In this document: in pieces, positions 17,050 to 48,400 of the stretch
Position numbering within the stretch: the first letter of the stretch is position 1
How the letters are laid out: each line of letters begins with the position of its first letter
Assembly: GCF_036321535.1 (NCBI RefSeq)
Contig: NC_087436.1
Span: 70,124,001 to 70,188,000 of the forward strand
Origin: Camelus dromedarius
Taxonomy: Eukaryota
Length of the DNA stretch: 64,000 bases
Direction of reading: 5' to 3'
Program-made: the position numbers and the translations under genes
The notes under the pieces: model-generated
What the model was told of the DNA's origin: nothing
Databases searched by the model: none
The model's input: only the letters and a program-made list of their open reading frames with translations

Positions 17050-18470
17050 TAGGCGGTTACACACAAAAGCGCCCCTGGATGTTTGGCCAGGTCTCCCACC
17101 GTTCAAGCACGGGGGGGCGGAGTGGGTGGCAAACACACCTGACCGCTCGGGAGGGTCGGGCCGGGCCAGGGACGGGAAGGACGAGGCCCTGGGCGCCGTC
17201 TCCTTTCCCGGGTGGGCAGGGAGCTCAGCGATGCCGGAGCGAGGCGGAAGGTGGGAAGTGGAAAGAGGAGGAGGTCGCCCCCTAGGGGAGCCGCGCCGCA
17301 GGCTGCGGGCCGGGGCGGGAGGGGCCGGCGGGAGGAGACGGCCGGTAGGGAGACCGCGCCGTCGGGCGGGGCCGTCCTTCCAGCTGGCTCGGACCCGGCG
17401 GGGCGGGCTGTAGACGGAGCGACGGAGCCCAGACCGGCCCGCAGCCAAGGAGAAAGGTGGCGGCGCGGACGGGACGGGGCGGCGGCTCCCCGCCGTGACC
17501 CTCTGCTCCCTCCGCCCAGGCCTGAGCGCGAGTCCGAGGCGGCGGCGAAGGAAGGAGCGAGCATGGCTGAGACCTCGCTGCCGCCCACCGCCGGCGCGGA
17601 AAGTTGCAGCGAGGAGCCGGGGAGGGGCGGGAAGCAGCGACTGGAGGAGCCGCGCCGCACTCCAACCCAGGGCGCGGACCGAGAGGACGAGGCGGGGCCG
17701 CCGCTGGCCTCCCCCGCGGGGCAATCGGAGCCGGGCTCGCCGGTGGCCGCCCCCTTCTTCCTGCTCTACCCGGGCGATGGAGGCGCCGGCTTCGTAGCGC
17801 GCCCGCCGCCGCAGCAGCAACAGCGCTCCTGGAGGACCCCGCCGTCGCCGGGCTCCCCGCTGCCCTTCCTGCTCCTGAGCTACCCGAGCGGCGGCGGCGG
17901 TGCCGGTGGCGGTGGCGGCAAACACCGTGAGTGGCGGCCGGGAAGGGGAACGCCAGCGGGGAGGGGAAGGGGGGCCTCGGCTGGGAAGGGCTGGCCCGGA
18001 GCTCCGCCTCCTGCTGGGTCCCCGGAGCCGAGCCGGACGCCGGGCCGGCTAGGAGGTAGGGGCGTTGGGGGTGGCTTCTTGGTACGCTCCCGTCCGGGGG
18101 CACGCAGGGGGGCGGCCGCTGTCTGGGTGCCGGATTATTTACCTCCGAGTCTCCCGAGGCCGCAGGCTCCTGCCCAGCCTCCCCTCCCTGCCCAGGCGCT
18201 GGATCTCGCTAGCCTCCCACGTGCTCGCCGGGTCCCAGCCCTGGGTCTCTGCTGGGAGGCTTCCCCGGAGGAGTCGAGGAGGGGGCGGCGCCGCCTTCTG
18301 CGGGCTCAGAGCGCCGCGGCCGCCGAGTAGGTGTGGCTGCTGCCGCGCCGCCGCCCGCGTGGCCCTAGTTGGACCACTAAATTTTTTACGAGCGTTCACT
18401 CCGCACCCGTAAATATTACAGATCCGTCCCCCAGAATGGGAAGAAATCAGGAATAGTGCGCGAGATGACG
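17050..18470. promoter_or_regulatory. CpG island / promoter of RUFY3 exon 1a
   Basis: Very GC- and CpG-rich, with multiple GGGCGG boxes, surrounding exon 1a. Confidence 0.85.
17563..17926 (+). CDS. RUFY3: RUFY3 alternative first coding exon 1a (MAETSLPPTAGAESCSEE...GGGKH)
   Basis: ATG in agcATGg context; donor CC|GTGAGT at 17926/17927; 364 nt, so phase 1. It splices in frame to 61649 (C|AT = His, then [12 protein letters not shown]). It matches my recollection of the long RUFY3 N-terminus. Confidence 0.88.
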
Positions 18471-31872: not shown

Positions 31873-32050
31873 ATGTCTGCTCTGACGCCTCCCACCGATA
31901 TGCCAACCCCCACCACTGACAAGATCACACAGGCTGCCATGGAGACCATCTACCTTTGCAAATTCCGAGTGTCTATGGATGGAGAATGGCTCTGCCTGCG
32001 AGAGCTGGATGACATCTCACTTACACCTGACCCAGAGCCTACCCATGAAG
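31873..32050 (+). CDS. RUFY3: RUFY3 alternative first coding exon 1b (MSALTPPTDMPTPTTDKITQAAMETIYLCKFRVSMDGEWLCLRELDDISLTPDPEPTHE)
   Basis: Recognisable RUFY3/Singar N-terminus; donor AAG|GTATGG; 178 nt, so phase 1; G|AT = Asp into the common exon. Confidence 0.95.
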
Positions 32051-43031: not shown

Positions 43032-45444
43032 GTAACTTAGTATTACTTTTTCTCAGACCATTTGATTTTTTTGCTGATATTCTTGGTTTTTACTATACTT
43101 TGGGAAGAAGATAGACCTTAGCCTCAGTTACTGGTTTATTAGAACAGGACCTATTAGCATTTTTAAAAATTAGCCTGACAGTTCTTTCACTACTGTTTAC
43201 CGTTATGTTAACAACCTAATTGTATTATTGTTAGTTTAACAGCACCTCAGCTGTTAAATTTGTCATTTAGTCTACTTACATTGACTTAGGGTTTTTCGCT
43301 GTGTTTAATATTTAGGGTTTTTTTTTTCAATCCCATTCCCTCTATTTCCTTTGAATAATTATGGCAAATATACTTAGATAACTCCAGTTTGTAGCCAAAT
43401 CAGAATACAGGGCACACAGTGGTTTCTTGTATACGTAGAGTGGACATTGAGTACCTATAATGTGCTCGGTACTTCAAAGTCTTTAATTATTGTATTTAAT
43501 TTGAATATCTAATTATTTCCTACAGGAATACTAATATGCTTGATGTGAAGTGCTGCCCCAGGCCCTGCGAGTTCTGCATGTTTGTTGGCCTCCCTGTATA
43601 CCATTTTATCTTTCTAAAATTAAAAAATAAAATGCTGAATTTCAAAATACATTTGGCCAGAAAATAGATAAAAGGTTTTGAACCTAAGTTTACTCTTTAC
43701 TTCTCACACCAGTGCTGTAGGGCAGGTCCTGTTCTCGTCCATGTTTTACAGATGAGGGAACTGACTAAGGGAAAAGAGATGGAGTACCTGGACCAAGGTC
43801 ACACAGCGAGTGAGGGGTGGGGCTGGGACGTGAGCCCAGGCGTTCCCGCTCTTGAGTCTGTTCTCTGAACCAGCATGTTCTCCTGCCTCTGTTTATAAAG
43901 TGACTTGCTGGGGATGTTGACAGAAGTTAGGAATTTAATCCTGGTCCTCTGAGCTGTACTCCTGTGCTTGGTTTTCTAAATCATTAATTTCTAGACTTTT
44001 GAATTGGGAGATAGCACAAATGTAATAGGGCATAGATACTTGCAGTCTTTTTGTATTACCTGTCTTTGTGTTTGACCTAGCCAATAATCTGTATATATCT
44101 ATTTTTCAGAAAAGTTCCATTTTAATCACATATCACCTTACTAGATCCCCATCTGCTTCCCTGTTTTCTGAATTTAAATTTAAATTTAAACTTTCTATAT
44201 ACTTGGATCTTTTTTTTGCGCATCTTTACAGAATAACTGACCATATATTTGACACTAGAATATACCCTTATAGTCTAATAGAAAATTCTGTTACATGAGA
44301 ACTAAAATTAATCAGTTTAATTACAGTAGTATTTTATAAACTCGTGAGAATAGGACAAATGGTAAGTTCTTTTTTTAGATGGTTATTCCAAGTTATTGCT
44401 TCAGATACTACGCTGACTTCTGTGATAAATCTTTCAAGAAAGAGGGCTTATCATGGGCAAAGCATTCTTGGCCCATTTTCTCATTCTTTTATGTTCATTC
44501 CCTGAGAACTTACCTTTATTTGCTGCATACTTACACATGTAAAATTCACATGATTTTGTGAGTTTAAGTATGAATATGCCATTGTGTGTAAAATAATGGT
44601 TTCAGAGTTACTGAAGGAAGATGCTAATCCATTTTTTAAAATTTCTATAGCTTCTCAAAACTTATTTCAGAACAGAAAATGATCTACCAGTTTTAAGACA
44701 CTGTTAGAAGACACTAAAATAGAATCTACCTACTATAGAATAATAGAATAATCTGTTACATTTGTAATCTTGACATTCTTGTTCTTTTGCTTCATATTCT
44801 CACTATCCTGTGTGCACGAACATTGAATTTACAGTAAGAGGAGAGAGTACTATACTTTTAACTGGATAAACATTATCTGTGTTCATTTTATTATAAGTGA
44901 TTTATTTTGTCTTCAAAACAGCAACTTTTCCTTTATTTTTGTTTTGGGGAAGGAGAACTGTTGGGGTGGAGGGCATCAGGAAGAGTATTGAGATTTTTCT
45001 TTATTATTCTAAGTCACTAGTTTTGCATCATGATATTTGTCCTGAGTATAAAAAACACCCCACATGTTTTTCAGCTTCACTGAGGGGATGAAAATGAATA
45101 TTGAATGAGGTTGCGTACACTTAGAATACCAAGAATCTAATCTTGATTTTCAGTGGGGGAAAAAAAACCTGTTACTTTTTAATGGGATGTGCACCTTCCC
45201 TTTTATTAAAAACTGAAATTATTAATCTCAGCTTTACGACATTTAATATCACAGTTAATATCTCTGCTTTGTTAGTGTCACATTCCTCCTTGGGTGACTG
45301 CTAACCTCTTGGGCTAAGCTCAAAGAGTTCTGGGAATCTCCCTTTCAGTTATCCCTTTTGAAACCTTGTTTTTAATAACACTTTTCTTTCTTGGCTTGCA
45401 TGACATTTTATCTTTCTTTTCCTTTCTTTTTGCCGTTTGCAAAG

Positions 45445-45498
45445 ACTCTTGGGAGGATTTGACAGATTTGGTGGAGCAAATGCGCGATGATACAGAAG
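45445..45498 (+). CDS. RUFY3: RUFY3 54-nt in-frame cassette exon encoding (D)SWEDLTDLVEQMRDDTE
   Basis: Long polypyrimidine tract followed by TTTGCAAAG| acceptor; AAG|GTGCGT donor; 54 nt, phase 1-1, no stop codon. It resembles an 18-aa insert I recall from rodent Rufy3 isoforms. Confidence 0.85.
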
Positions 45499-48400
45499 GT
45501 GCGTGCCACACCAACATCTTTTAGCCTTTTTTCTCCCTTTCTTTCTTTCTTTTTCTTTCTTTTTTCTTTTTAACTTTCTAACCACCTTTTGATTGTTTTC
45601 CATAAGAGGAAGTGTCCGCTTTAGGTTTTATTTCCCATGACAGTAACTGGAGCAGTAAGCATATTTGCCAGATTTTCCATGCAGGTACTTCATACAGGAT
45701 TAGGGTTTTCAGAGTCTTGCATTTAAAATCTTTATCTTTATGGTTCCAAGTAAAGTGGCATTAATATATGTGTATGCTGTTCATTTAGAATATTTGTTAT
45801 TTAATAACATGTTCAAAGGGGACTTTATTTCAAGATTATATCATGTATTCCTATGGCTGTTTTCTCATTTGTTTGTTGGAAAATGTAAATTTTTTATCAT
45901 TCATGCCAAAAAAATAGATATATACATATTTCTATGAATTCCACGAACAGATCCCAGGAACTTCAAGTATTCGGTCTGGAATGTTGCTCTCTGATTTGTA
46001 GATTTCCATAACATTAAGCTACTTTCAGCTTGGTCATGTGGTAGCTGGTGGAATTACTTTGAAAAGTAGCACATGTGTTGTAATGTATGAAGGTTCCACA
46101 AACCAATCATTTTTTTTTCTGTAATTGGCACCTAACTTTAGGGAGCTCGTTAATACATTTTTTTATAATAAAAATAGAAAAATTGAAGTTTGGCTCCACT
46201 TTATTGCATCATTTTATGTTCTCCCACTTTGGCTGGGCACATTCTCATAGCACACGCTTCAGGGCGCACTCTCATAGCACACGTCCACTACTCTGCCCAC
46301 GCTGGCCTTGTCACTGACTACATCAGCGGCCCTGAGCCTCCTCTCCTGCCTTGTTCCTGTGATGTTCCATCCAGAGCATTTACACCGCATCTCCCTCCCA
46401 CTGCAGCCCCTGCAGTCTAGAGGAGAGCTCTGGGACACACTCCCTGACAGCTTTGGCCCGCATTCATTTCCCCATTCACTCAGGTTCTGCAGAACTTGGA
46501 GGTTGAAGCTTTTGACATGTTCTCTGATTCATGTATGTTTATATTCCTAGTTAAAGTGTAAAATCCTTGAGAGCAGAATTTGTCTTAAACTTCTTGGTGT
46601 TCGTATCAGACTTGGGACAGTATGGTCCTGGGTAGATTTGGTCACACTGGGCAAAAAACTAAAGAAGTTTTCTCTCTCCAGTGAGGCCCAATAGTTTCTT
46701 CTTTAGCATTTTACTTTGAATGAGTAAATTATCCTGAGTTTCATCTCATTTTCTACAAACTATTTTTATTCCATTTTTTATTCTGCTTTTAATATAATTA
46801 ATTATATTTTGATGAACAAAAAAATTAGTATTGTCTAGTTGATTGACAGTTCATAGACAAGAGAAAAAGGAGGTTGTTGGCTCAGTCAATGAGTACTGTT
46901 TACTGTGTTAGCTGCCATTATTTTTATTATTATTATTATTATTATTAATAACCAGGTACCAGTGTTTTGATTCCTTTAACAGACTAGTTATAAAGAAAAA
47001 AGCTACATAAAAGCCACAAATCTGTGCCCTTCTCGGAGATTTTTTTCCCTATGACTTACCCCTGGTAAACTTCCATTTCTTTAATACAAGGTACTACTGC
47101 AAGAATCAAGCCTGCTGTGAGAGTCAGCCTCCTCTTTTTCATTTTCTTTTTGCTGGAATTTTTATGAATGATTATCATAGATGAAATCAGAAAGGGAAAA
47201 ACTCAGAAGATATGAATTGTATTACTTTGATGTCTTAGTAGATTACCAGTCAAATGGTTAGCCAAGAACCTATTTACAGAAATGTCTTTCTGGAGTATAG
47301 CTTAAAATAAAGAAAATCAGAATGGGGGAAAGAAAATGGCTTTACTTGTTAACTTTTTTTTTGAGTCATTTCATCCTTGTCTTTTTAAATATAATTTTCT
47401 ACATCTTTTGTCTTGTTTCAGTTATATGAAATTCTAGAATTTTAGTGTTTACATAAGTTAGAGTTTTTGTAAATGAGTACTTGTAACAAGAATGAACATG
47501 AGTTGTGGAGTGTTACCCACACATAACACGCATAGCAGCCCAGGGTCATGGGAAGAACCTGCAGTCAGACCCAGAGAAAGCTGGTAATAAATGTAGGCTC
47601 AGATCTTCAGGAGACCATCACTGCTGAGCTGTTTTAACTCTGTTTCTTATCTGTTGTTATGGATGTGTCATAAGAGTTGGCTTTTTAACACTGAGTTCCA
47701 GCCTCCTGAAAGACTGCTTTTTTTAAGATAATAAACTCTAGGAGGTCATGGATTTGAACTGTTAGCTTTGGGGTTTGGTTTTTGTTTCAATTTTGGCAAG
47801 ATTGGGGTTTTTCTGGTGAACTGATTTCTTACAGTGATGGTTGGTTTTACATTCAGTGTGTCTATAACACCTGTCTAGTAGAATATGAAATGTCTTCTTA
47901 GGGTGGAATTGTATCATGCTCACAACATTGATCAGTTATCTTGCATCTCACTCATTATATGCTATTAATTTGAATCTAAAAGTTTTGAAACTCGTTAGAG
48001 AATTATGAAGAGTAATGAAATAATAAAAAGCACATGGTTTACTATCTTTAGTTTCTCAAAAAATAATTGAATTCCTTTCTGTACTCATTTATAAGCCTTT
48101 TAAACAGATTCTATGAATTTGCAGTTGCCCAGATTACTACCTATCTCTCTGAGCATTGGAGTGGCTGGGACATTACTTGAATTAGGAAAATAATATACCT
48201 GTGTGAAATATTACCTGATCAAGATTGCTTACTGGTTCCTTGATATATTTTGTGAGTTAAGACTTGTTATCTGCCATCTTGAAAAGTGGAAGGAACATAC
48301 CAATGATTTTCTTAGCATCTAGCACTGTGTCATATAGACATTCAATGAAAGGCTATATTTAATTAAAGAAAATTATTAAACTTATTTGTGGAAGGCCATA

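Follow-up and report, generated by a model that had tools for sequence, protein, structure and literature searches.

The RUFY3 gene of the dromedary contains a 54-nt cassette exon that is real, ancient and optional, and that is already known from annotation; the motif it encodes is, as judged from the sequence, a candidate for function only. The exon adds a conserved acidic peptide of 18 residues to the flexible linker preceding the RUN domain. We tentatively regard this insert as a short motif that folds when bound by a partner, of which the ATG8 family is the single most likely class; this assignment is plausible and short of firm.

The window, the whole stretch of 64,000 nucleotides of Camelus dromedarius DNA that we analysed, carries the 5' part of RUFY3 on its + strand. 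Two alternative first exons precede the cassette: exon 1a, whose coding part (17563..17926, + strand, 364 nt, phase 1, donor GTGAGT) was located by tblastn of annotated isoforms, and exon 1b, whose coding part (31873..32050, + strand, 59 codons plus 1 nt) matches the N-termini of many mammalian RUFY3 proteins at 100% identity. The cassette itself (45445..45498, + strand, phase 1-1) has an acceptor with a pyrimidine tract followed by AAG and the donor GTGCGT. Exon 2 (61649..61822, + strand) encodes the start of the RUN domain, and the RUFY3 RUN constructs solved in the PDB begin within it, past the insert. When we re-read the window and joined the exons, the coordinates, length, phase, translation and exon-joined peptide given for the cassette by the first-pass annotation all proved correct, and exon 1b, cassette and exon 2 together form an open reading frame with 18 extra residues. 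A splice-site and frame filter (pyrimidine tract of at least 16/20, donor agreeing at 7/9 or more consensus positions, 9-150 nt, frame preserved, no stop) returned the cassette as the sole candidate in the 29.6 kb that separate exon 1b from exon 2; with its AG/GT ends, preserved frame and freedom from stop codons it has the properties of a cassette exon. Exon 1a also joins the cassette in frame, with open reading through cassette and exon 2. Counting positions from the tryptophan of the insert (W0), use of exon 1a instead of exon 1b places K-H-H before the motif serine, and the upstream acidic residues are gone, leaving only S-1; exon 1b is the source of the acidic residues at -3 and -2. Exon 1a is GC-rich, and in it a stretch resembling P-F-(F/L)-L-L-x-Y occurs twice, both copies being kept as far as lizards.

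The exon had been described as hidden, which it is not, and its insert had been linked with rodent isoforms. Among the 120 RUFY3 proteins listed for an exon-1b query, the insert is already present in 25 and skipped in 79, the others being 14 fragments that run into an intron and 2 models without exon 2. An insert-directed search (120 of 175 matches listed) found it in placentals, a marsupial, the platypus, birds, reptiles, amphibians, teleosts, sharks and a chimaera, that is, in every jawed-vertebrate group sampled and not specifically in rodents. The cassette end in the window is of the M type, that in the muroid rodent rows of the V type. Eight of the ten pairs of included and skipped forms that we compared, all of them annotation models, are same-species pairs and differ solely by the 18 residues; of the remaining two, one is a cross-species pair with two further mismatches and one differs elsewhere. 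Most of the insert-bearing rows are predicted isoform models rather than direct reads. Proteins from 2-kb assembled contigs represent both the included form (P0125) and the skipped form (P0041, P0047 and P0072), and given the 13 and 16 kb that separate the exons in the window, we infer that such contigs must derive from spliced RNA. The annotated RUFY3 isoforms (RefSeq and UniProt models of, e.g., 487 versus 469, 638 versus 620, and 483 versus 465 amino acids) have the same exon at the same position, and their peptide, identical in most mammals, does not differ in sequence from the insert of the window. The form that is longer by 18 residues is probably the rat splice variant singar2, which, unlike singar1, reportedly does not suppress surplus axons (Mori et al. 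2007). Eight divergent RUFY relatives that keep a motif like that of exon 1b have no such peptide ahead of RUN. Judging by these sequences, the cassette seems confined to the RUFY3 of jawed vertebrates, although in the relatives it might be concealed by skipping. The fish and shark models (P0187-P0193 and P0205) have a RUN start unlike the tetrapod form and a cassette tail longer by 1-3 residues, and the cassette peptide of the platypus has 16 residues.

From 425 stored proteins, 216 contained both flanking anchors and 113 of these contained the insert. These 113 rows are isoforms of related species, partly obtained through the insert-directed search, so that the counts given for them are not independent and are biased toward conservation. 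The conservation of W and L that the first-pass annotation had proposed as a check on its motif is nevertheless borne out, and it reaches far past mammals. W0, E+1, D+2 and T+4 are present in 113/113 rows, and position +3 is hydrophobic throughout (L in 109/113 and F in 4/113, the four being teleost rows). Upstream of the tryptophan, E-3, D-2 and S-1 are each found in 112/113. Downstream, +5 is D or E in 109/113, +6 is L in 85, V in 23, W in 4 and E in 1, +7 is V in 110 and M in 3, +8 is E in 109 and D in 4, +10 is M, L, V or I in 113/113, and +11 is R in 109/113. The tail beyond +11 is variable; its last five residues differ in sequence and length, and the insert comprises 16 to 21 residues in most rows. 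The conserved core, codons W0 to M+10 (45450..45482, + strand), thus includes the LIR-like W-E-D-L, an overlapping L-x-x-L-x-E and a predicted helix. The first-pass annotation overlooked that conservation extends as far as +10/+11, with the i, i+3, i+7, i+10 spacing of a helix. Since +7 and +10 are conserved, any binder would read beyond the four-residue core; the insert could be an LIR followed by a helix whose register is uncommon, an LIR that is itself helical, or a helix recognised by a different partner.

The surroundings of the cassette suggest how its inclusion may be controlled. Neural exons under SRRM4/RBFOX have a long AG-free acceptor zone and TGC near the 3' splice site. The 3' splice region of the cassette (45349..45444, + strand) runs for 94 nt without AG before the acceptor, whereas AG-to-AG gaps of at least 94 nt account for just 5 of the 1934 gaps in 32051-61648; relative to the exon, TGC occurs at -14 and at -7, and a single TGCATG at -48. 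Based on these sequence features, the flank is a possible SRRM4/RBFOX context. The cassette resembles the SRRM4-dependent neural microexons in being frame-preserving and conserved and in having a long AG-free acceptor with TGC; however, that class is given as 3-27 nt in the accessible literature, and the RUFY3 cassette, at 54 nt, is twice the class size. RUFY3 is unmentioned in the top-ranked SRRM4 and microexon papers that we searched and has no row in the table of SRRM4-induced inclusion in PMC7935315 (file 7, 315 rows; 12/19 supplement files searched). File 6 of the same supplement reports other human RUFY3 events that change in tumours, one affecting an 85-nt exon and the other an alternative acceptor of 20 nt; of the 4 places at which RUFY3 events occur in this source 3 are shown, and neither event is the cassette. 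The supplements of PMC12626424 and PMC13719587 contain no RUFY3 entry. Rufy3 isoforms are described as hypervariable in brain in the accessible parts of PMC11156538 and PMC10103983, and RUFY3 is among the genes with differential exon usage in those of PMC13719587; the cassette is not described in the portions available of these three papers or of PMC7236505 and PMC10354229. Downstream, the region of the donor site (45499..45571, + strand) includes, right after the donor, a T/C-rich tract (45526-45571) that is a possible site for U-rich splicing regulators.

The first-pass annotation proposed that the insert carries an LIR/AIM-like motif. The match to the xLIR pattern, the invariance of the tryptophan and a weak pass in a co-fold with GABARAP support this claim in part, whereas an acidic residue at +7 is missing and the LIR is not the sole reading of the insert: because of the helical conservation pattern to +10/+11 and of the overlapping B56-type LxxLxE site, it is one of three live readings. 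The [WFY]xx[LIV] core is present in the window and in 109/113 homologues, and the xLIR regular expression (as given in the accessible text of PMC5119064) matches 108/113 insert-bearing proteins; in the two full-length proteins scanned, the match in the insert is the only one. The pattern is unspecific, as it also matches 5.1% of the sequences obtained when the 19-residue peptide was shuffled 100,000 times, and the available part of PMC5119064 reports 27 verified alongside 20 unverified matches in its own data set. In the same source, the verified AIM of yeast Atg3, GDWEDL (Table 1), shares the WEDL core and an acidic residue upstream with the RUFY3 insert, and GEWEDL of NCOA7 is among the unverified rows of another set. 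Atg3 is, however, an unrelated protein, and the RUFY3 candidate differs in being alternatively spliced and in being followed by a conserved hydrophobic helix face. The accessible sections of PMC7615515 state that acidic residues at -2 and -3 raise LIR affinity, that canonical LIRs bind in extended form, and that an acidic residue at +7 is found in many LIRs. When the cassette is joined to exon 1b, 112/113 rows have acidic or phosphorylatable residues in positions -3 to -1; with exon 1a, S-1 alone is left. The acidic +7 that starts the amphipathic helix of C-terminally extended LIRs occurs in 0/113 rows, +7 being V or M.

Among the closest known LIRs is that of FYCO1, a RUN-domain motor adaptor relative, which shares acidic residues at -3 and +5 with the RUFY3 insert. 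In the LIRs of FYCO1, AnkG, AnkB and FAM134B, as far as PMC7615515 is accessible, helix-forming residues lie C-terminal to the core, as they do in the insert. According to the same partial source, D at +5 of the FYCO1 LIR leads to a preference for LC3A/B and repels GABARAP; because the acidic +5 of the insert resembles this LC3A/B-selective motif, LC3A/B may be favoured over GABARAP. The differences are that the insert is without the acidic +7 of the FYCO1/AnkG-type LIRs and has hydrophobic residues at +7 and +10, and that the RUFY3 motif lies N-terminal of RUN, the FYCO1 LIR near its C-terminus. In FYCO1/AnkG-type LIRs the hydrophobic register is one step later than the +7/+10 of the insert.

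Residues 50-83 were co-folded in ESMFold2, without alignments, with a GABARAP that agrees with PDB 1gnu at 114/116 positions; the run gave a score of 0.34, exactly at the mark, with the best of 3 controls at 0.03 and no interface given; contact agreement between runs was at least 80% and partner pLDDT at least 53. In calibration the mark was reached by 51/78 solved and 2/108 mismatched microbial pairs and by 39/65 solved and 2/126 unrelated eukaryotic pairs, a calibration outside which peptides fall. Scores of 0.60 or below contain just 5/78 solved complexes, yet all 4 passing mismatches (of 180). The pass may also reflect memory, because many LIR-GABARAP complexes have been solved. As a model result, the co-fold lends weak support and shifts the odds of ATG8 binding slightly. 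Since the linker is of low confidence in the AlphaFold2 model, the motif is probably exposed; against an LIR, however, the helix predicted there for residues 63-74 runs through L+3. RUFY3 knock-down in HeLa left autophagic flux unchanged according to the accessible text of PMC8938454, a result whose relevance depends on exon inclusion in these cells.

The same residues may instead form one continuous amphipathic helix that enters the groove of a partner outside the ATG8 family, or packs on RUFY3's own RUN domain or coiled coil and alters its activity; we consider this possible and somewhat doubtful. S-1 would serve as an N-cap, and W0, L+3, V+7 and M+10 would fall on one face, to which the restriction of +7 and +10 to hydrophobic residues in all rows corresponds, whereas +6 varies. 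The L-to-F exchange of teleosts at +3 would be harmless to such a helix, and the inability of singar2, probably the longer form, to suppress surplus axons, as reported by Mori et al. 2007, also counts in its favour. The hydrophobic moment at 100 degrees is 0.57, equalled in 0.12% of 20,000 shuffles, and for W0 to +10 it is 0.57-0.60 in five bony-vertebrate rows (p ~0.001 or less, 20,000 shuffles); however, in the two rows tested from cartilaginous fish it is 0.39-0.43 and does not reach significance (p 0.11 and 0.08), and the 0, 3, 7, 10 pattern was derived from the same sequences. AlphaFold2, given a bat isoform that carries the insert and an alignment of 88 sequences, predicts a helix for residues 63-74, but its pLDDT of 54-59 does not amount to a confident packing on RUN: pLDDT is 45-59 for residues 51-80, otherwise below 50 in the linker, 92 for residues 81-90, and above 85 in RUN. 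Moreover, a helix of this kind names no partner, and the invariant E+1, D+2 and T+4 exceed what a plain amphipathic helix needs.

A docking site for PP2A-B56, L+3-x-x-L+6-x-E+8, which would bring the phosphatase to the RUFY3 N-terminus or to its partners, is in our view improbable. The consensus, [LMFI]xx[ILV]xE with an invariant E, and the gain in affinity from phosphorylation at motif position 2 are taken from the accessible part of PMC10970375. RUFY3 has L-x-x-L/V-x-E in the window and in 108/113 rows, the four teleost F rows included, and the invariant T at motif position 2 could be phosphorylated. However, position 4 is L and not the preferred I of LxxIxE, positions 7-9 are not acidic, and the consensus is lost in 5/113 rows: the pigeon has E in position 4, and four rows from cartilaginous fish have D in place of the invariant E. 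The pattern also arises in 5.0% of shuffles and has four further matches elsewhere in the protein, and a B56 site leaves the invariant W unexplained. That the insert serves mainly to separate the exon-1b motif from RUN, as an acidic spacer or a patch for phosphorylation with no dedicated partner, would agree with the low confidence of the region in the AlphaFold2 model and with the variability of the last five residues, but four invariant positions including a tryptophan, kept from sharks to mammals, are unexpected for a spacer, and we judge this explanation quite unlikely. Least credible is the W-acidic motif for kinesin light chain, raised as an alternative in the first-pass annotation, by which the insert would couple RUFY3 to kinesin-1. 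The E-D that comes after W, amid other acidic residues, and the role of RUFY3 as an endolysosomal motor adaptor speak for it, yet the published consensus, L/M-D/E-W-D/E (bioRxiv 10.1101/2020.06.17.157255, accessible part), is matched by 0/113 rows, with D at -2 in 112, and RUFY3 is placed with dynein-dynactin in the available text of PMC8938451 and PMC8938454. We also considered that the insert might modulate ARL8 binding via the neighbouring RUN helix, and dropped this as unlikely, since the part of RUFY3 to which ARL8B binds is residues 441-561, not RUN (PMC8938454, accessible text). A caspase site (D-L-T-D), an AP dileucine, an FFAT motif and a gamma-ear motif, judged by consensus alone, were dropped too, as +5/+6 vary or key residues are missing.

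The cassette is not the only conserved element ahead of RUN. Exon 1b encodes at 31948-32010 (residues ~26-45) an ancient motif of two cysteines and a tryptophan that is nearly invariant in vertebrate RUFY3 and is also kept in the eight divergent RUFY relatives. AlphaFold2 predicts a low-confidence beta-hairpin for it, and it has its own W-x-x-L, which does not match xLIR. Searches of Pfam and the ESM Atlas with exon 1b matched nothing. This motif may be a better-conserved uncharacterised binding element than the cassette.

The literature that we searched, mostly outside subscription papers and including the accessible parts of PMC7431699, PMC8938451, PMC10354229, PMC7236505 and PMC3634510, assigns no motif or partner to the RUFY3 insert. 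The available literature on RUFY3 and LIR, PMC7431699 included, assigns no LIR to RUFY3, and the word singar2 is absent from the literature searched. RUFY3 studies used the human 469- and 620-residue forms, as far as PMC8938451 and PMC8938454 are accessible; because these lengths match exon-skipped proteins, a motif specific to the insert would have escaped them. If the insert does bind ATG8 proteins, the two pockets of their LIR docking site would accommodate W0 and L+3. Affinity would then be raised by the acidic -3 and -2, contributed by exon 1b only, and by a phosphorylatable S-1, and the stretch from T+4 to R+11 would fold into a C-terminal helix. Inclusion of the exon could then recruit a RUFY3 dimer to ATG8-coated membranes or have it turned over there, and skipping would remove the site. 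In its fullest form this proposal, which we put forward as speculative and rather unlikely, is that since the origin of jawed vertebrates the exon toggles an LC3A/B-preferring LIR in the dynein adaptor RUFY3, tuned by the choice of first exon and by phosphorylation of S-1; as a so far unrecognised retrograde counterpart of FYCO1, the included form would tie the ATG8-coated organelles of neurons to dynein, and these 11 residues might bind either ATG8 or PP2A-B56, one excluding the other. If ATG8 proteins are not bound, the invariant tryptophan motif would still indicate another partner; if they are, RUFY3 would gain through splicing a controlled link to autophagosomes or to ATG8-labelled endolysosomes.
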